From Escherichia phage vB_EcoM_G53, in sequence record MK327943.1: DNA of 64,000 nucleotides; one strand, written 5' to 3'. Positions 1,264 through 17,138 of this stretch are shown here, piece by piece. Position 1 is the first letter of the stretch. Every line of letters begins with the position of its first letter. A model generated the notes under the pieces. It was given only the letters and a program-made list of their open reading frames with translations. It ran no database searches and was not told the DNA's origin. The translations under genes were made by a program, and so were the position numbers.

Positions 1264-3589
<2,326 letters not shown>

Positions 3590-3616
3590 AAATAAAGCAA
3601 ATTAAGAGGAATTAAA

Positions 3617-5599
3617 ATGGCACTTCTCTCTCCGGGCGTTGAGCTCAAAGAAACTACCGTACAGAGTACTGTAGTTAATAACTCCACTGGTACTGCTGCC
3701 CTGGCTGGAAAATTCCAATGGGGACCTGCATTCCAGATTAAACAAATCACTGATGAAGTTGCATTGGTTGATATGTTTGGTACTCCTAATACGGATACAG
3801 CAGATTATTTCATGTCTGCTATGAACTTCCTTCAATATGGTAATGACCTTCGTGTTGTACGCGCAGTTGATCGTGATGCTGCTAAGAACTCATCTCCTGT
3901 AGCAGGCAATATTGAATTCACAATCTCTGCTGCTGGTAGTAACTATGCGGTCGGTGATAAAATTATCGTTAAGTATTTGACCGAAACTGTTGAAGCAGAT
4001 GGTTATGTCACTTCAGTTGATGTCGATGGTAAAATTCTTAACATTTATATCCCAACCGGTAAAATTATTGCTCGTGCAAAAGAAATTAATGAATATCCGG
4101 CATTGGGTTCTAACTGGACCGCCGAAGTTGCCAGTTCTTCTTCTGGTCTCTCTGGCGTTATTACAATTGGTTCTATCGTAACCGATTCGGGTATTCTGTT
4201 AACTGAAGTTGAAACTTCTGAAGAAGCTATTACTTCTCTAACTTTCCAAGAATCTATTAAAAAATATGGTGTCCCAGGCGTAGTTGCTCTTTATCCTGGT
4301 GAACTTGGCGACCAGCTCGAAATTGAAATCGTATCTAAAGCAGACTATGACAAAGGTGCTTCAGCCCAGTTAAAAATTTATCCTGATGGTGGTACTCGTG
4401 CATCTACTGCTAAAGCAATCTTTGGGTATGGCCCACAAACTGATGACCAATATGCAATTATCGTTCGTCGTAACGATGCTGTAGTTCAGAGCGTAGTTCT
4501 TTCTACTAAACGTGGTGAACGCGATATTTATGGTAGTAATATCTTTATTGATGATTTCTTTGCTAAAGGCGCAAGCAATTATATTTTCGCTACTGCACAA
4601 GGTTGGCCAAAAGGTTTCTCTGGCGTAATCAAACTGGGCGGCGGCTTATCATCTAATGAAACTGTTGACGCTGGTGATTTAATGGAAGCTTGGGATTTGT
4701 TTGCTGACCGTGAATCTGTTAATGCGCAGTTGTTTATTGCTGGTTCTTGTGCAGGTGAATCTTTAGAAGTTGCTTCTACAGTTCAGAAACATGTTGTAGC
4801 AATTGGTGATTCTCGCCAAGATTGTTTGGTTCTTTGCTCACCACCACGTGCAACTATAGTCGGTATTCCTGTTAATCGTGCAGTTGATAATCTGGTTGAT
4901 TGGCGTACTGCGTCAGGAACTTACACTGATAATAACTTTAATGTAAGTTCTACTTATGCTGCTATTGACGGTAACTATAAATATCAATATGACAAATATA
5001 ATGATGTGAATCGTTGGGTTCCATTAGCCGCTGATATCGCTGGTCTTTGTGCTCGCACAGACAATATTTCTCAGCCTTGGATGTCTCCAGCCGGTTATAA
5101 CCGTGGACAAATTCTTAACGTTATTAAGCTTGCAATTGAAACTCGCCAAGCGCAGCGTGATCGTTTGTACCAGGAAGCTATTAACCCTGTTACTGGTACC
5201 GGTGGTGATGGGTATGTTCTGTACGGTGATAAAACTGCCACTTCTGTTCCTTCGCCATTTGACCGTATTAACGTTCGTCGTTTGTTCAATATGGTTAAAA
5301 CGAACATTGGTTCAGCATCTAAATATCGCCTGTTTGAATTGAACAACGCATTTACCCGTTCTTCTTTCCGTACAGAGACTTCTCAATATCTACAGGGTAT
5401 TAAAGCTCTTGGTGGTGTATATAACTTTAAAGTTGTTTGTGATACCACCAATAACACCCCAGCAGTTATCGACCGTAATGAATTTGTAGCTACTTTCTAC
5501 TTACAACCTGCGAGATCGATAAATTATATTACGTTGAACTTTGTAGCAACAGCAACGGGTGCCGATTTCGACGAACTAATTGGTGCTGTAGGTGCCTAA
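3617..5599 (+). CDS. 18: Tail sheath protein gp18
   Basis: 660 aa (T4 659); synteny. Confidence 0.95.
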   Translation: MALLSPGVELKETTVQSTVVNNSTGTAALAGKFQWGPAFQIKQITDEVALVDMFGTPNTDTADYFMSAMNFLQYGNDLRVVRAVDRDAAKNSSPVAGNIEFTISAAGSNYAVGDKIIVKYLTETVEADGYVTSVDVDGKILNIYIPTGKIIARAKEINEYPALGSNWTAEVASSSSGLSGVITIGSIVTDSGILLTEVETSEEAITSLTFQESIKKYGVPGVVALYPGELGDQLEIEIVSKADYDKGASAQLKIYPDGGTRASTAKAIFGYGPQTDDQYAIIVRRNDAVVQSVVLSTKRGERDIYGSNIFIDDFFAKGASNYIFATAQGWPKGFSGVIKLGGGLSSNETVDAGDLMEAWDLFADRESVNAQLFIAGSCAGESLEVASTVQKHVVAIGDSRQDCLVLCSPPRATIVGIPVNRAVDNLVDWRTASGTYTDNNFNVSSTYAAIDGNYKYQYDKYNDVNRWVPLAADIAGLCARTDNISQPWMSPAGYNRGQILNVIKLAIETRQAQRDRLYQEAINPVTGTGGDGYVLYGDKTATSVPSPFDRINVRRLFNMVKTNIGSASKYRLFELNNAFTRSSFRTETSQYLQGIKALGGVYNFKVVCDTTNNTPAVIDRNEFVATFYLQPARSINYITLNFVATATGADFDELIGAVGA

Positions 5600-5711: not shown

Positions 5712-6203
5712 ATGTTTGTAGATGACGTAACTCGTGCCTTCGAATCTGGTGATTTCGCTCGCCCTAACCTGTTCGAAGTAGAAATCTCTTATCTTGGGCA
5801 AAACTTTAGCTTCCAGTGTCGTGCTACGGCTCTTCCTGCTGCGATTGTTGAAAAGGTTCCTGTTTCTTATATGAACCGTAAAATTAACGTGGCCGGTGAT
5901 CGTACATTCGATGATTGGACTATTACAGTAATGAACGATGATGCTCATAGCATTCGTCAGAAATTTGTTGATTGGCAAGGTATTGCAGCAGGACAAGGTA
6001 ATGAAATTACCGGTGGTAAACCTGCTGAATATAAAAAGTCTGCTATCGTTCGTCAATTTGCCCGTGATGCTAAAACGGTCACTAAAGAAGTTGAAATTGT
6101 CGGCTTGTGGCCTACTAACGTTGGCGAAGTATCTCTTGACTGGGACAGCAATAACGAGATTGAAACGTTCGAAGTAACTCTTGCTCTTGATTGGTGGGAA
6201 TAA
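5712..6203 (+). CDS. 19: Tail tube protein gp19
   Basis: 163 aa as T4 gp19; synteny. Confidence 0.9.
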   Translation: MFVDDVTRAFESGDFARPNLFEVEISYLGQNFSFQCRATALPAAIVEKVPVSYMNRKINVAGDRTFDDWTITVMNDDAHSIRQKFVDWQGIAAGQGNEITGGKPAEYKKSAIVRQFARDAKTVTKEVEIVGLWPTNVGEVSLDWDSNNEIETFEVTLALDWWE

Positions 6204-6251
6204 TCTGGTTGGGGAGAAATCCCCAGCTTCCCGTGATGACGGAGAAGTCCA

Positions 6252-6259
6252 TATAAATA
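6252..6259 (+). promoter_or_regulatory. Late promoter TATAAATA upstream of gene 20
   Basis: Exact TATAAATA 29 nt upstream of gp20 ATG. Confidence 0.5.
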
Positions 6260-6287
6260 TAACTATAATTCCCATTCGGAGAATACA

Positions 6288-7859
6288 ATGAAATTTAATA
6301 TCTTAAGTTTGTTTGCTCCATGGGCAAAAATGGACGAACGTGATTACAAAGACCAAGAAAAAGAAAATTTAGAATCTATCACCGCACCAAAATTGGACGA
6401 CGGCGCTAAAGAATACGAAGTATCTGAAAATGAAGCACAGCAAACATATAATGCTATGTTTCAGAGAATGTTCGGTAGTCAAGAACCAGGGCTCAAATCA
6501 ACCCGTGAATTAATCGATACGTATCGAAATTTGATGACGAACTATGAAGTGGATAATGCAGTCTCTGAAATAGTTTCTGATGCTATCGTATATGAAGATG
6601 ATACAGAAGTCGTTTCTATAAATTTAGACAACACAAAATTTAGTCCAAATATAAAATCAATGATGTTGGATGAATTTAACGAAGTGTTGAATCATTTATC
6701 TTTCCAACGTAAAGGTTCAGACCATTTTAGGCGTTGGTATGTAGATTCTCGAATTTTCTTCCATAAAATTATTGACCCTAAACGCCCTAAAGAAGGTATT
6801 AAAGAGCTTCGTCGTTTAGACCCACGCCAAGTTCAATATGTCCGTGAAGTTATTACAACCACTGAAGCCGGTGTTAAAATAGTCAAGGGTTATAAAGAAT
6901 ATTTCATTTATGACACATCACACGAATCTTATGCTTGTGATGGTCGCATATATGAAGCTGGCACAAAAATAAAAATCCCTAAAGCCGCGATTGTTTATGC
7001 CCATTCTGGTTTAGTTGATTGTTGTGGTAAAAATATCATTGGTTATTTGCATCGGGCTATTAAGCCGGCGAACCAATTAAAACTTCTTGAAGATGCCGTT
7101 GTAATTTATCGTATTACTCGTGCTCCAGATCGTCGTGTATGGTACGTTGATACAGGTAATATGCCTTCAAGAAAAGCAGCAGAACATATGCAACATGTTA
7201 TGAATACGATGAAAAACCGTATTGCATATGATGCTACTACAGGCAAGATTAAAAACCAGCAGCATATTATGTCGATGACCGAAGATTATTGGTTACAACG
7301 ACGTGATGGTAAAGCAGTAACAGAAGTTGATACATTACCAGGTGCAGATAATACTGGAAATATGGAAGATGTACGTTGGTTCCGTAATGCGCTTTATATG
7401 GCTTTACGTATTCCTATTACCCGTATTCCAAGTGACCAAGGTGGTATACAGTTTGATGCTGGTACTTCTATTACACGAGATGAATTGTCGTTTGGTAAAT
7501 TTATTCGTGAGCTGCAACATAAATTTGAAGAGATATTCCTAGACCCGCTTAAAACTAATTTAATTCTTAAAGGAATTATTACAGAAGATGAGTGGAATGA
7601 TGAAATAAATAATATTAAGATAAAATTTCATCGGGATAGTTATTTCTCGGAATTAAAGGATGCTGAGATTCTGGAGCGCCGCATTAATATGCTTCAGATG
7701 GCCGAACCATTTATTGGTAAATATATTTCTCACAGAACAGCTATGAAAGATATTCTTCAGATGTCTGACGAGGAAATTGAACAAGAGGCTAAGCAAATTG
7801 AAGAAGAGTCGAAAGAGGCTCGTTTCCAAGACCCCGACCAAGAACAAGAGGATTTTTAA
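6288..7859 (+). CDS. 20: Portal vertex protein gp20
   Basis: 523 aa (T4 524); synteny. Confidence 0.95.
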
Positions 7860-9194: not shown

Positions 9195-10007
9195 ATGATC
9201 AAAGAACAACTTTTGAAAGAAGCTCAGAACATCGAGACTTCAGTTGCTCTTAATAGTGTTTTCGAATCAGTAGAACTGTCTCCGGACGTTAAAGCTAATT
9301 TCAGCACTGTATTCGAAGCCACCGTTAAGCAGGAAGCAGTCAAACTGGCTGAATCTCATATCAAAGCCATCGCCGAAAAAGCCGAAGAAGAAGTTGAAAA
9401 GGCTAAAGAAGATGCTGAAGAGAAAGCTGATAAAAAATTGGCTGAACAAGCTTCTAAATTCCTAGACCATCTTGCAAAAGAATGGCTCGCAGAAAACCAA
9501 ATCGCAGTTGATAAAGGCATTAAAGCTGATTTGTTCGAATCCATGCTTGGTGGTCTGAAAGAACTGTTTGTTGAACATAACGTTGTTGTTCCAGAAGAAT
9601 CTGTAGATGTTGTAGCAGAAATGGAAGAAGAGCTGGCCGAACATAAAGAAGAAACCGCTCGTTTGTTCGAAGAAGTTACCAAACGTGATGCATATATCAA
9701 TTACGTTCAGCGTGAAACCGCTATTAATGAAAGCGTAAAAGACCTGACTGAATCTCAGAAAGAAAAAGTTATTGGCCTGGTTGAAGGTATGGATTATTCT
9801 GACGCATTTGGTACTAAGTTAACTGCTATTGTAGAAATGGTTAAAGGTTCTACTAAAGAAGAAGCCGCTATTACCGAAAGTATAAATACAGTTGACAATG
9901 ACGCTGCCGGTCTTAATTTTGTTGCCGAAGCAGTTGACACTACCACAACTCAGGTAGAACAGAATTCTAATGTAAGTTTATATGCGAAAGTCGCATCTCG
10001 TTTCTAA
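9195..10007 (+). CDS. 22: Prohead core scaffold protein gp22
   Basis: 270 aa, acidic coiled-coil-like; synteny. Confidence 0.85.
   Translation: MIKEQLLKEAQNIETSVALNSVFESVELSPDVKANFSTVFEATVKQEAVKLAESHIKAIAEKAEEEVEKAKEDAEEKADKKLAEQASKFLDHLAKEWLAENQIAVDKGIKADLFESMLGGLKELFVEHNVVVPEESVDVVAEMEEELAEHKEETARLFEEVTKRDAYINYVQRETAINESVKDLTESQKEKVIGLVEGMDYSDAFGTKLTAIVEMVKGSTKEEAAITESINTVDNDAAGLNFVAEAVDTTTTQVEQNSNVSLYAKVASRF
9881..9888 (+). promoter_or_regulatory. Candidate late promoter TATAAATA for gene 23, inside 3' end of gene 22
   Basis: Exact TATAAATA about 137 nt upstream of gp23 ATG; an 8-mer this short also occurs by chance. Confidence 0.35.
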
Positions 10008-10024
10008 TTTAAAGGTTAACACAA

Positions 10025-11593
10025 ATGACTACTATCAAAACTAAAGCTCAGCTCGTAGACAAATGGAAAGAACTGCTGGAAGGTGAAGGCCTGCCGGAAA
10101 TCGCTAATAGCAAGCAGGCTATTATCGCTAAAATCTTCGAAAACCAGGAAAAAGATTTCGAAGTATCCCCTGAATATAAAGACGAGAAAATCGCTCAGGC
10201 ATTTGGTTCTTTCTTGACCGAAGCTGAAATTGGTGGTGACCATGGTTATAATGCTCAGAACATCGCAGCAGGTCAAACCTCTGGTGCAGTAACCCAAATT
10301 GGGCCGGCAGTTATGGGTATGGTTCGTCGTGCTATTCCTAATCTGATCGCCTTTGATATTTGTGGTGTTCAGCCTATGAACAGCCCGACCGGTCAGGTAT
10401 TTGCTCTCCGTGCAGTATATGGTAAAGACCCTATCGCTGCTGGCGCTAAAGAAGCTTTCCATCCGATGTATGCCCCAGACGCGATGTTCTCTGGTCAGGG
10501 TGCTGCTAAGAAATTCCCAGCTCTGGCTGCTGACACTACTACTGTTGTAGGTGATATCTATACTCACTTCTTCCAAGAAACTGGTACTGTATATCTGCAA
10601 GCTTCTGCTATCGTAACACTTGATTCTGGTGCAACTGATGCAGCTAAATTAGATGCAGAAGTTAAGAAACAAATGGAAGCTGGTGCACTGGTAGAAATCG
10701 CTGAAGGTATGGCTACTTCTATCGCTGAACTCCAGGAAGGTTTCAACGGTTCTACCGATAACCCATGGAATGAAATGGGCTTCCGTATCGACAAACAAGT
10801 TATTGAAGCTAAATCTCGTCAGCTGAAAGCAGCTTACTCCATAGAATTGGCACAAGACCTCCGTGCAGTACACGGTATGGATGCTGATGCTGAACTGAGC
10901 GGTATTCTGGCTACAGAAATTATGCTAGAAATCAACCGTGAAGTTGTTGATTGGATTAACTACTCTGCACAGGTTGGTAAATCTGGTATGACCCTGACTC
11001 CGGGTTCTAAAGCTGGTGTATTTGACTTCCAGGACCCGATTGATATCCGTGGTGCTCGTTGGGCCGGTGAAAGCTTTAAATCTCTGTTGTTCCAGATTGA
11101 TAAAGAAGCAGTTGAAATTGCTCGTCAAACCGGTCGTGGTGAAGGTAACTTCATTATCGCTTCCCGTAACGTAGTTAACGTACTGGCTTCAGTTGATACT
11201 GGTATTTCTTACGCTGCACAGGGTCTGGCTTCTGGTTTTAATACCGACACTACTAAGTCTGTATTTGCCGGTGTACTTGGTGGTAAATACCGCGTATACA
11301 TCGACCAGTATGCTAAACAGGATTACTTCACCGTTGGTTACAAAGGCGCTAACGAAATGGATGCAGGTATTTACTATGCTCCTTACGTTGCACTTACCCC
11401 ACTGCGTGGTTCCGATCCTAAGAACTTCCAGCCGGTAATGGGCTTTAAAACTCGTTATGGTATCGGTGTTAACCCGTTTGCTGAAAGTTCCCTGCAGGCT
11501 CCAGGTGCTCGCATCCAGTCCGGTATGCCGTCTATCCTGAACAGCCTTGGTAAGAATGCTTACTTCCGCCGTGTATATGTAAAAGGCATCTAA
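10025..11593 (+). CDS. 23: Major capsid protein gp23
   Basis: 522 aa; near-identical over long stretches to T4 gp23 as recalled. Confidence 0.97.
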   Translation: MTTIKTKAQLVDKWKELLEGEGLPEIANSKQAIIAKIFENQEKDFEVSPEYKDEKIAQAFGSFLTEAEIGGDHGYNAQNIAAGQTSGAVTQIGPAVMGMVRRAIPNLIAFDICGVQPMNSPTGQVFALRAVYGKDPIAAGAKEAFHPMYAPDAMFSGQGAAKKFPALAADTTTVVGDIYTHFFQETGTVYLQASAIVTLDSGATDAAKLDAEVKKQMEAGALVEIAEGMATSIAELQEGFNGSTDNPWNEMGFRIDKQVIEAKSRQLKAAYSIELAQDLRAVHGMDADAELSGILATEIMLEINREVVDWINYSAQVGKSGMTLTPGSKAGVFDFQDPIDIRGARWAGESFKSLLFQIDKEAVEIARQTGRGEGNFIIASRNVVNVLASVDTGISYAAQGLASGFNTDTTKSVFAGVLGGKYRVYIDQYAKQDYFTVGYKGANEMDAGIYYAPYVALTPLRGSDPKNFQPVMGFKTRYGIGVNPFAESSLQAPGARIQSGMPSILNSLGKNAYFRRVYVKGI

Positions 11594-13329: not shown

Positions 13330-14328
13330 TTATGATACTAATTCAATCCATGCAGGACGCAGAACATCTTGCACCATTCGGACTAATTCTTTCTTAACAA
13401 GATTCGGATTATCAGATGATGTTAATACAATACCTTCGCGAGAAGTTTCTTCCAGAATATCTTGAACAGTCAATCCCATCACTTTGCCAAAATCTTTTGG
13501 CGTTACAGCACCAATCTTAGAAATCACATTATTAATACGATTTAATGTAACATAACAAGCTAGAACATCAAGCAAGTTTTTGTCAGTTTCGGTTAATGGA
13601 ACCTGAGTTTTAATAGGCTTATCAGACTTTTTCTTTTCACTGAATTTAGAGTTCTTGCACTTAATAGCTACACGAGTACCGTTTGGCAACCATTTAGGGA
13701 AACAAGGCTTCAGAACATAACCTTCTGCCGTATTATCGCCAATAACATTAGCATCAAATACGCAATTATTTGCTTCGACAAGGTCTTCCGATGCCGTGGC
13801 GTTATAAGCGGCTAAAACGGAATCAAGGTCATTTGGAATCATGATAAGAGAATCAAATGTTCCACGACCAAGCATTGGTGCCATTTTAAAACCGAATTCA
13901 TTACAGAAATCTTGCATTTCGTAATCGGTCAAATACGTATTATCACCACTTTCTGTATTGATAAGGATATCGAACACATAAAAATCTTTTTCACCGTAGT
14001 CAACACCTTTCTGGATTCCACCACCAGCGAATTCACCAAAGACCTGATATGATACAGCTCGAGAACTACCCATTACTTCTTGAACGTTTTTAATAGCCTT
14101 ATCATACTTCTTGAGTACAATTTCATAACCATAAAAATCTTCTGCTGGAAGAATAGGGCCTGTGCGCTTGGCGCATGTGACGTTGTCACGTTCAATTATT
14201 AACGAGAAGTTAGTCCCATGGATTTTCTCACGTGCTACCCAAACACCAGTAGTCAAACCATTAGTGTAGAGTTTTTCAATAAACTTAGAGTTGTAGTGGT
14301 TTTCAAGACTGCTGTATTTCTTAAACAT
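13330..14328 (-). CDS. rnlB: RNA ligase 2 (RnlB)
   Basis: 332 aa (T4 about 334); nucleotidyltransferase motif KIHGTN; position after gene 24. Confidence 0.85.
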
Positions 14329-14890: not shown

Positions 14891-14971
14891 AATCAATCCC
14901 GTATTATTTGGTTTGTGCCATTATATACATCAATCTCAAGTTGTGTTTTGTATGCTTTAAAAACGAAGAAA

Positions 14972-14985
14972 GGGGCCGAAGCCCC
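14972..14985 (-). terminator. Terminator hairpin (ggggc-UUCG-gcccc on minus sense, then U-rich) after hoc
   Basis: Perfect 5-bp GC stem with UUCG loop, followed on the minus sense by TTTCTTCGTTTTT. Confidence 0.55.
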
Positions 14986-14991
14986 TTACGA

Positions 14992-16410
14992 TTATGGATA
15001 TGTATAGATGATACCAGTTTCCAAAGCAGTTTTATGGATGATGTATCCATTACGTGATTCTTGAACATCAACTTCCGGATAGTCTTTCATCATCTTCTGA
15101 AGAGTGTAACGATGCAGGTAGTATTTACTATCTGGATCTTCAGTTTTCCAATCTTTACCTTCTTCAGTCATTTTTTGGATTTCATCCATAACCCACCATC
15201 CGCACCAGATGTAAGCTGAAGTACGATGTGGAAGAGGATGAACATAAGGTAATTCACCTTCTGGTTCCGGAGCAACTTTATCAGTTACCTGAACTTGACC
15301 TTCTGCTGTAATAGTTTTGCTATCGTAATCAGTTGCAGTAATAGTTGCAGTAACTTCAATAGTTTGACTTCCAATAGATGAGGTATCAACGGTATATACA
15401 TTAGTTGACCCTTCTACAGGAGAAGAATCTTTCTTCCATGAATACTCGATTTGCGCTTCTTCTGGAGCATCAGTGACATTAGCGGTAAATGTAGCCGAAG
15501 CATCTTGCTGAACGTTAATAGAAGGAGGAGTCAATGTAACCCGTGGATTCATTGTCTTCTTATTAACCGTTAATGATACTTCATTCGAAGTAACTTCCTT
15601 TGCATCATAATCTGTCGCGGTTACTTGGGCTACACATTTAATTCTTTTTACTCCACTTGTAGTCGGAGTATAGCTAAATGTAGAGTTAGTTTCTCCACCA
15701 ACCTGTGAATCATCTACATACCACTGATACGTAGCAGACGCTCCAACCGGTTGAGAAGCTAAGGCAGCAGTAAATTGAACTGGGGTTCCAATTACTCCGG
15801 CTGAAGGACTATTGGGAGTTACTGCCAACGTAGTTGTCTGTGTCTTTTTATTAACAGTCAGTGACACTTCATTAGAAGTAACGCTTAGTGCGTCATAATC
15901 TGTTGCGGTTACTTGAGCCACACACTTAATTCTTTTTACCCCGCTTTCGGCAGGAGTGTAATTGAACGTAGCGTTAGTTGCTTCGCCAACAGGAGAATCG
16001 TCTACATACCATTGATAAGTAGCGTTTGCGCCTGATGGCTGCGAAGCTAAAGCGGCGGTAAATTCAATAGCTGTTCCTATTACTCCAGCGTCAGGGCTAT
16101 TAGGAGTTATAGCCAGAGTAGTTGTCTGAGTTTTATTTTTAACTGTGATAGTTGCAGTAGCTTCTGCTGTTTCAGCTTCAGCGTCTGGAACTGTATTTGC
16201 TGCAACTACTTTAATAGTCTTTTGACCGGCAGGTCCTTTTAGTACATAACTAAAAGTTGCTTCAGCTCCATCTTGTGGAACATCATCCACAGTCCAAGCA
16301 TATGTAATAGTTCCACCTTCAGCCTGACCACTAGGTGTGGCAGTAAACTGCTGGGTCTGTCCTATAACTCCAGTAGGTGTTTTAGGAGTTATATTAACTG
16401 TAAAAGCCAT
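14992..16410 (-). CDS. hoc: Highly immunogenic outer capsid protein Hoc, with four Ig-like repeats
   Basis: 472 aa, repeated beta-rich modules plus C-terminal domain; position between 24.x and inh. Confidence 0.8.
   Translation of the reverse strand: MAFTVNITPKTPTGVIGQTQQFTATPSGQAEGGTITYAWTVDDVPQDGAEATFSYVLKGPAGQKTIKVVAANTVPDAEAETAEATATITVKNKTQTTTLAITPNSPDAGVIGTAIEFTAALASQPSGANATYQWYVDDSPVGEATNATFNYTPAESGVKRIKCVAQVTATDYDALSVTSNEVSLTVNKKTQTTTLAVTPNSPSAGVIGTPVQFTAALASQPVGASATYQWYVDDSQVGGETNSTFSYTPTTSGVKRIKCVAQVTATDYDAKEVTSNEVSLTVNKKTMNPRVTLTPPSINVQQDASATFTANVTDAPEEAQIEYSWKKDSSPVEGSTNVYTVDTSSIGSQTIEVTATITATDYDSKTITAEGQVQVTDKVAPEPEGELPYVHPLPHRTSAYIWCGWWVMDEIQKMTEEGKDWKTEDPDSKYYLHRYTLQKMMKDYPEVDVQESRNGYIIHKTALETGIIYTYP
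15556..16131 (-). repeat. Tandem duplication of a 288-bp (96-codon) Ig-like domain inside hoc
   Basis: Hoc residues 94-189 and 190-285 are about 83% identical (TQTTTLA..SLTVNKK twice). Confidence 0.8.
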
Positions 16411-16419
16411 AAGCTATCC

Positions 16420-17088
16420 TTATTTTAATGTTATGAAAGAAGAATTACGAGTTTCACGAATTAGAACTGATCCATCGCGATTAATATAATAAATTAAGCT
16501 AAATAATGTTTGGTGAGCAGAAGCATGTACAAAACTAGTTGGGCGAGATTTCCAATCTGGGGTTTCGGCTATCCATTGATAAATCCACCAAGGAACAGTA
16601 ACATATCCTGGGGCTTTGCCTAATTTAATTAGTGTAGGACTAAAATTTTCAGGCAGAACAAATTTTACTTCTTTATTTACCTCTGGTTCAGGCTCTTTTT
16701 CAGATTCAACAACCTGAGTAATTGCTTCTTCGAATTTATCATGGCTGAATTCTTTTTCTTGTTCGACAACTTCTAATACTTCAACTTGTTCTGTTGGAGA
16801 ATCAAACAACAGAATAGCTTCTTCTTTAACTTCTTCGTTGGTGAAATTAACACCGTCCACATCATCTGCGGCAGTAATTAAATCAGTGATAGATAATCCA
16901 TCAGTTTCAGGTAATGGTTCATCAGCCAGTGCGTTAAGAGCTTCTTCGATATCAACAACAATATTATCGAATGATTTTGTTTTCTTAACACTAATGCCAA
17001 ATTGTTTCGCATATTCGAACAGTTTAGCTTTGGCTTCCTTTTTATCGGAAAGAGCACGTAACTCTTCAATATAGTCTTTATCGATCAT
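16420..17088 (-). CDS. inh: Inh-like protein (inhibitor of prohead protease)
   Basis: 222 aa (T4 Inh about 226); position between hoc and uvsW. Confidence 0.6.
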   Translation of the reverse strand: MIDKDYIEELRALSDKKEAKAKLFEYAKQFGISVKKTKSFDNIVVDIEEALNALADEPLPETDGLSITDLITAADDVDGVNFTNEEVKEEAILLFDSPTEQVEVLEVVEQEKEFSHDKFEEAITQVVESEKEPEPEVNKEVKFVLPENFSPTLIKLGKAPGYVTVPWWIYQWIAETPDWKSRPTSFVHASAHQTLFSLIYYINRDGSVLIRETRNSSFITLK

Positions 17089-17101
17089 AGTATTTCCTCA
17101 T

Positions 17102-17109
17102 TATAAATA
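17102..17109 (+). promoter_or_regulatory. Late promoter TATAAATA upstream of uvsW
   Basis: Exact TATAAATA 30 nt upstream of uvsW ATG in the divergent inh/uvsW spacer. Confidence 0.45.
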
Positions 17110-17138
17110 TAACTATATTTATTACATGGTAATTTGAC

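Follow-up and report, generated by a model that had tools for sequence, protein, structure and literature searches.

The extra length of the Hoc protein of Escherichia phage vB_EcoM_G53 is an in-frame tandem copy of a 288-bp domain-2 module. It is very probable that this Mosigvirus-type hoc gene carries an old tandem of two module types, termed alpha and beta, and that the tandem is one state of a copy-number polymorphism of zero to four modules that is reshuffled by recombination. The analysis covered a stretch of 64,000 nucleotides of the phage genome (record MK327943.1), referred to below as the window.

Hoc is a capsid protein of phage T4 that is used for antigen display, and it has been implicated in the adherence of phages to mucus. 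In the window, the hoc coding sequence is listed as an open reading frame (ORF) on the minus strand at 14992..16410 and comprises 472 codons plus the stop codon. The product is the head outer capsid decoration protein; it consists of four Ig-like/PKD domains followed by a C-terminal domain that binds the capsid. The first-pass annotation, made from the sequence, had named this ORF Hoc, and the assignment holds, as T4 Hoc is matched among the PDB sequences (5vf3_Z and others, E 3.3e-219, phmmer) and the gene occupies the position of hoc in T4. It had also given the protein as 472 aa compared with 376 aa in T4, a surplus of 96 residues, and both lengths were verified (the T4 gene is 1131 bp long). 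The best-matching PDB stretch aligns residues 189-472 of the query with residues 93-376 of T4 Hoc, with the second of the two modules and everything after it collinear with T4 Hoc from its domain 2 onwards. The gene lies between inh (16420-17088) and 24.3, near rnlB (13330-14328) and uvsW (from 17139), with 24.2 also present, in the gene order of T4; the placement matches the annotations of T4, RB69, RB18, MM02 and teqskov. A terminator-like GC hairpin (AAGGGGCTTCGGCCCCTT followed by a T run) was located by a consensus scan on the minus strand at 14970..14987, 5 nt past the hoc stop codon, and terminators are annotated at the equivalent position in phages WFK and MM02.

Several Pfam families were matched in the protein: PKD (43.1 bits against a cut-off of 23.5), Ig_2 (30.7 bits), PKD_4 (30.0 bits) and PKD_3, with I-set/Ig_3 matches at residues 289-373. 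Structure prediction (AF2, 31 homologues) yielded four beta-sandwich modules over residues 1-380 with a pLDDT of about 90, and the C-terminal domain was modelled poorly, with a pLDDT below 60. A Foldseek comparison with the PDB returned multi-Ig chains as its top matches (Dscam, ICAM-5, Sidekick and an ice-binding adhesin, E 1e-13); the Hoc of RB49 was not among these PDB matches, and the result supports the fold class only. All five domains are encoded on the minus strand. Domain 1, the N-terminal and distal Ig-like domain (residues 1-93, 16132..16410), is a predicted beta-sandwich with a pLDDT of about 85-93 and is 86.7% identical in nucleotide sequence to its T4 counterpart. It is followed by unit A, the alpha-type domain-2 module delimited by repeat search and alignment (residues 94-189, 15844..16131), and by unit B, the beta-type module and counterpart of T4 domain 2 (residues 190-285, 15556..15843). 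Domain 3 (residues 286-381, 15268..15555; pLDDT about 90) is the third Ig-like type and corresponds to T4 domain 3, and its nucleotide sequence is 98% identical to that of teqskov and RB18. The capsid-binding domain (residues 382-472, 14995..15267) corresponds by homology to residues 286-376 of T4 Hoc. Among the 31 homologues it hardly varies, including the run EPEGELPYVHPLPHR..WCGWWVMD, and the C-terminal sequence is identical to that of RB69 Hoc.

Units A and B are adjacent, equal in length and in frame, and each resembles the other more closely than it does any further domain of the protein. Tandem Repeats Finder reports a period of 288 bp with 2.1 copies at 15553-16143 (score 681), and a repeat search of the window DNA places the copies at 15553-15840 and 15841-16128 with 76% identity. 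In the register of the protein, the module boundaries of the first-pass annotation (residues 94-189 and 190-285; 15556-16131) match exactly. Its proposal of a head-to-tail, in-frame duplication with a 288-bp unit agrees with these results. The two modules share 80 of 96 residues (83.3%), in line with the 83% previously noted, and alignment of the two 288-bp units gives 218 identical nucleotides (75.7%). This is far beyond chance: in 10,000 codon shuffles, the number of identical nucleotides was 85.8 ± 7.5 and never exceeded 118. The flanking Ig-like domains are much more distant, as had been claimed: domains 1 and 3 share only 26-40 of 96 residues with A or B, and the in-register nucleotide identity of A and B to domain 3 is about 32-33%.

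The first-pass annotation had described the duplication as recent, and this part of its account does not stand. By the Nei-Gojobori method, A and B differ with dN 0.121, dS 1.43 and omega 0.08. The differences fall on codon positions 1, 2 and 3 in the numbers 14, 10 and 46, third-position identity is 52%, and the longest run identical between the units is 14 nt. For comparison, the dS between the window and T4 is 0.30-0.42 for hoc domains 1, 3 and 4, 1.3 for inh and 2.0 for rnlB, and is saturated for uvsW. The A-B value is thus 3-5 times that of the other hoc domains, and the divergence of the units is similar to that seen when the flanking genes of Mosigvirus and Tequatrovirus are compared (dS 1.3-2.0). 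The duplication is not recent, because synonymous sites are nearly saturated, each unit has orthologues at the same position in other phages, and the 472-aa form is common. The alpha/beta duplication is therefore old, and both copies are under strong purifying selection. Since the DNA is saturated at synonymous sites, the 83% amino acid identity is misleading as to age, and such identity between tandem domains does not imply a recent event. Near-identical neighbouring modules were not found in any multi-module gene examined. The identity of modules within a gene was 56-85% at the amino acid level in 30 two-module clusters and 74-84% at the nucleotide level in slur03 and CHD94UKE2.

Same-position modules of other phages are closer to each unit than its own neighbour is. 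Unit A differs from the first modules of moskry, teqskov and UGKSEcP1 by dS 0.14, 0.26 and 0.55. For unit B, the values are 0.03 and 0.17 to the second modules of moskry and teqskov, and 0.24 and 0.14 to the single modules of T4 and MM02. All comparisons between alpha and beta modules lie at dS 0.74-1.43. Unit B is 92% identical in nucleotide sequence to the T4 module and 96% to the single module of MM02, and unit A falls in a group with the first modules of moskry, teqskov, UGKSEcP1 and slur03 and the greater part of the RB18 single module. The same division was obtained when 170 modules from 120 Hoc clusters were clustered. The clade of unit A contained 8 first modules of three-copy genes, 29 first modules of two-copy genes and 46 single modules, and that of unit B contained 8 second modules of three-copy genes, 25 second modules of two-copy genes and 33 single modules. 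A dS matrix of the DNA recovers the same two clades.

Homology searching returned 892 Hoc relatives. Comparison of Hoc lengths, which the first-pass annotation had put forward as a check, revealed classes of 376, 472 and about 568 aa; among the best 120 clusters, 79 were of 376 aa, 29 of 472 aa, one of 468 aa and nine of 567-570 aa. The three lengths therefore correspond to one, two and three 96-residue modules. The full range is wider. A single module is present in the 376-aa Hoc of T4, RB18 and MM02, two in the 472-aa Hoc of the window, moskry, teqskov and CHD94UKE2, three in the 568-aa Hoc of UGKSEcP1, and four in the 664-aa Hoc of slur03 (LN881728.1; fetched locus 631-2625), the largest array found here. 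At the other extreme, the 164-aa Hoc of WFK has no module as a result of an in-frame deletion that joins domain 1 to the capsid-binding domain. This gene lies at MK373775.1 106894-107388 (fetched locus 3395-3889). The deletion takes out all middle modules together with domain 3, and its junction, at a Pro-Glu common to both sides, brings '...ATNTVPE' of domain 1 directly before 'GELPYVHP...' of the capsid-binding domain.

In GenBank, the 472-aa form is widespread, with hundreds of records. A blastn search with unit A gave 890 matching places, distributed over 616 phage records; of 60 records sampled evenly, 21 had two such places. Extra modules would thus be present in roughly 35-45% of about 616 T-even phage records, a rough prevalence drawn from blastn place counts and a score-sorted list of protein clusters. 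A scan of IMG/VR with the Hoc protein returned 21 loci, mostly of distant Hocs, and the module history given here is drawn from the GenBank phage records rather than from these loci.

Traces of exchange between the two module types were sought by scoring, in single modules, the 70 nucleotide sites that distinguish A from B. The single module of RB18 is of alpha type over its 5′ three quarters and of beta type over its 3′ quarter. The switch lies near nt 215-225, beside the 14-nt identical run at 192-205. Such a chimera is the product that would be expected of an unequal-crossover deletion from an alpha-beta tandem, and it favours a history in which the tandem is old and at least some single-module genes are derived. 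The T4 module is of beta type with a seven-site alpha patch encoding 'DALSV', which looks like the footprint of gene conversion. Protein blocks at positions 21, 45-54 and 80-83 occur in all alpha/beta combinations in both single- and multi-module genes. The history of the modules is reticulate, since chimeric and mosaic modules occur, and this mosaicism blurs any tree of duplication order built from the few DNA sequences compared.

The hoc gene as a whole also appears to have moved between phages. A sliding comparison with teqskov delimits an island of high identity shared with Tequatrovirus at approximately 14900..16620 (a region without strand), extending from the 3′ end of inh through all of hoc to just beyond the hoc terminator. 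Identity is 0.82-1.00 inside the island and 0.2-0.8 outside it in inh, 24.3 and 24.2. The hoc domains are 86-98% identical to those of the Tequatrovirus phages T4, teqskov, RB18 and UGKSEcP1, compared with 68-79% for inh, 24.3, rnlB and uvsW; 24.2 has no match in these phages, or one of just 41 nt. Overall, hoc amounts to an island of 90-100% identity, and its flanks (inh, 24.3, 24.2, rnlB and uvsW) are 50-79% identical. Another part of the window points to Mosigvirus, as the 24 kb at 20000-44000 are 99.1% identical to the Mosigvirus phage vB_EcoM_WFK. In the Mosigvirus relatives moskry, MM02 and WFK, which carry two, one and no modules, the flanks are mostly 95-100% identical to those of the window. 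This pattern of identities implies that a hoc cassette was exchanged across the Mosigvirus/Tequatrovirus boundary. WFK is itself among the closest genome relatives of the window.

The proposed mechanism combines these processes. The window belongs to a Mosigvirus-type T-even phage whose hoc has the architecture domain 1, alpha, beta, domain 3 and capsid-binding domain, the alpha-beta pair being one state of a zero-to-four-module polymorphism spread across Tequatrovirus and Mosigvirus. Traces of three processes are visible: unequal crossover between modules, through which units are gained or lost, gene conversion between them, which produces the alpha/beta mosaics, and the swapping of whole hoc cassettes between co-infecting phages, even across genera. 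A broader version of this scheme is possible, although it is put forward tentatively: the domain-2 modules would form a recombination-driven array of zero to four units that is repeatedly expanded, contracted and swapped between genera, is selected for fibre length or adhesin valency, and persists in these hyper-recombinogenic phages only through the synonymous divergence of neighbouring modules. The identical runs between neighbouring modules are at most 14-36 nt long.

Four other explanations of the two modules were weighed against the old tandem. A recent in-frame 288-bp duplication in this phage or its immediate ancestors would account for head-to-tail, in-frame, equal-length units that are the most alike of any pair of Hoc domains. 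This is very improbable in view of the dS of 1.43, the 75.7% nucleotide identity and the 14-nt limit on identical runs, and the units are nearer to same-position orthologues in many phages of two genera, with the 472-aa form in hundreds of records. A recent, private duplication was rejected on the grounds of synonymous divergence and positional orthology. The probability that the repeat was expanded by an assembly or sequencing artefact is negligible; what can be said for it is just the general fact that tandem repeats can mis-assemble. With differences at 70 of 288 positions, the units cannot be confused by an assembler. Many genomes sequenced independently of one another share this architecture (moskry with 97% identity), the frame is unbroken, and purifying selection acts on A as well as on B. 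The artefact was rejected on the sequence differences, the independent genomes and the intact frame. Capture of a foreign Ig-like domain, whether from a different gene or from a distantly related Hoc (such as a middle module of RB69 type), has precedents of a kind in hybrid Hocs such as P0092, and RB69 Hoc likewise has two middle modules. It is nonetheless highly unlikely, since A and B share 80 of 96 residues and are both nearer to the first RB69 middle module than to the second; for these two reasons they are considered co-orthologues of one module type, and capture was rejected for the hoc gene of the window.

The remaining alternative has a better claim, yet it too is considered unlikely. 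It proposes an out-of-register fusion of two diverged alleles, in which an RB18-like gene contributed domain 1 and alpha and a T4/MM02-like gene contributed beta, domain 3 and the C-terminus, the alpha/beta divergence being older than the joining event. Single-module genes with an alpha core or a beta core are numerous (46 and 33 clusters), and hoc demonstrably moves between genera. Domain 1 of the window is nearer to RB18 (89.6%) than to MM02 (83.1%), B is nearest to MM02 and T4, and alpha and beta are as far apart as the flanking genes are between the genera. Single-module genes could accordingly be ancestral, with the tandem arising by unequal recombination of diverged alleles. However, the RB18 chimera, alpha at its 5′ end and beta at its 3′ end, is more readily explained by deletion from an existing tandem than as an ancestral alpha allele, the beta module of T4 contains an alpha patch, and domains 3 and 4 show no comparably deep dimorphism. 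The joining would be old in any case, as the alpha-beta tandems of other phages differ from that of the window by dS up to about 0.5. The old tandem, reshuffled by recombination, is the preferred reading.

Comparison with known Hoc proteins places this architecture in context. T4 Hoc (376 aa; PDB 5vf3 chain Z and 8t1x) has the same position between inh and 24.3, and its domain 2 is the counterpart of unit B. The Hoc of the window differs in having the additional alpha-type unit A between domain 1 and the T4-like module. The 472-aa Hoc proteins of moskry, vB_Eco_F31, vB_EQ1, teqskov and others have the same five-domain layout, with alpha followed by beta. They are 94-97% identical to the window in nucleotide sequence over the whole gene and differ by point differences only, concentrated in domain 1. 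In GenBank they are named 'PKD domain protein' or 'Hoc-like head decoration', and the record of moskry already has a repeat_region annotated inside hoc. The 472-aa architecture is known from public genomes, and variation in the number of Ig domains in Hoc has been published; because it is annotated in hundreds of public genomes and such variation is published, the feature is not new. No description of the alpha/beta two-module form, the cross-genus exchange of hoc or the zero-to-four-module series was found in the literature searched. By-products of modest value are the series of module numbers in close relatives and the cross-genus hoc island.

RB69, the reference Mosigvirus, has a Hoc of 471 aa (NP_861884; fetched locus 9613-11028) with domain 1, two middle modules, domain 3 and the C-terminal domain. 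In the Ig-like part, identity to the Hoc of the window is only about 40-55%, and its middle modules share only 38 of 96 residues, unlike the pair in the window. A and B match the first RB69 module at 49 and 52 of 96 residues and the second at 38 and 36. The alpha/beta pair of the window is taken to be a younger duplication of one module type because both units resemble the first RB69 module, and the RB69 pair reflects an older or separate domain-2 duplication (or acquisition). The 567-aa protein P0092, a metagenomic cluster of 24 sequences, is a hybrid Hoc. T4-type domain 1 and alpha are followed in it by RB69-type middle modules, RB69-type domain 3 and the common C-terminal domain, an order that appears to show recombination between two deeply diverged Hoc types. 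More distant homologues are the Hoc proteins of PNJ-9 (without domain 3), of the Serratia phage Muldoon (10 Ig-like domains) and of PG7 (one). The principle in common with these is a conserved capsid-binding domain joined to a variable string of Ig-like domains (PMC10385173, PMC11853027). The case described here differs in that it concerns the copy number, from zero to four, of one specific module among very close relatives.

T4 Hoc is a monomeric fibre of 180 Å at the centre of each gp23* hexamer, composed of three Ig-like domains plus a domain that binds the capsid, and its homologues contain strings of 1-10 Ig-like domains (PMC10385173). The Hoc of the window would likewise occupy gp23* hexamer centres as a monomer, judging by its conserved C-terminal domain. 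The displayed protein is altered by one additional Ig-like domain, as the first-pass annotation had anticipated, with display itself deduced from the same C-terminal domain. The fibre would be longer by about one Ig domain, increasing from roughly 180 Å to about 225 Å. If so, the reach and valency of capsid adhesion would change, as would antigenicity. Fibre length, valency and the antigenic surface all depend on how many Ig-like domains are displayed. Domain 2 of PNJ-9 Hoc has been reported to bind fucosylated MUC2 through S183/L184/T185 (PMC11853027). In the window, S-L-T occurs at residues 183-185 in unit A and 279-281 in unit B. By analogy with PNJ-9, whose hoc is a divergent homologue with 65% nucleotide identity to that of T4 (PMC11853027), this tripeptide match suggests that a second copy of a putative mucin-binding module may be displayed. 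The hoc genes of close relatives with zero to four modules form a natural allelic series for relating fibre length to mucosal adherence.

The surroundings of hoc differ from those of T4 in one respect. In T4, the homing endonuclease gene segE lies between inh and uvsW (fetched T4 locus 6058-6675); it is absent from the window, where the gap between the two genes is only 50 nt (17089-17138). RB69, WFK, MM02, teqskov and RB18 are likewise without segE at this site. The core of the T4 late promoter, TATAAATA, occurs in 18 copies in the whole window compared with 7.0 ± 2.6 expected. An exact copy was sought on the minus strand directly upstream of hoc and inh, and none was present; one copy lies on the plus strand at 17102-17109, just 5′ of uvsW. 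Within Hoc, domain 1 is the fastest-evolving domain. Compared with moskry it shows dN 0.067, dS 0.10 and dN/dS 0.66, and dN is 0 for domain 3, domain 4 and unit B. This pattern points either to diversifying selection or to a patch introduced by recombination at the tip of the fibre.
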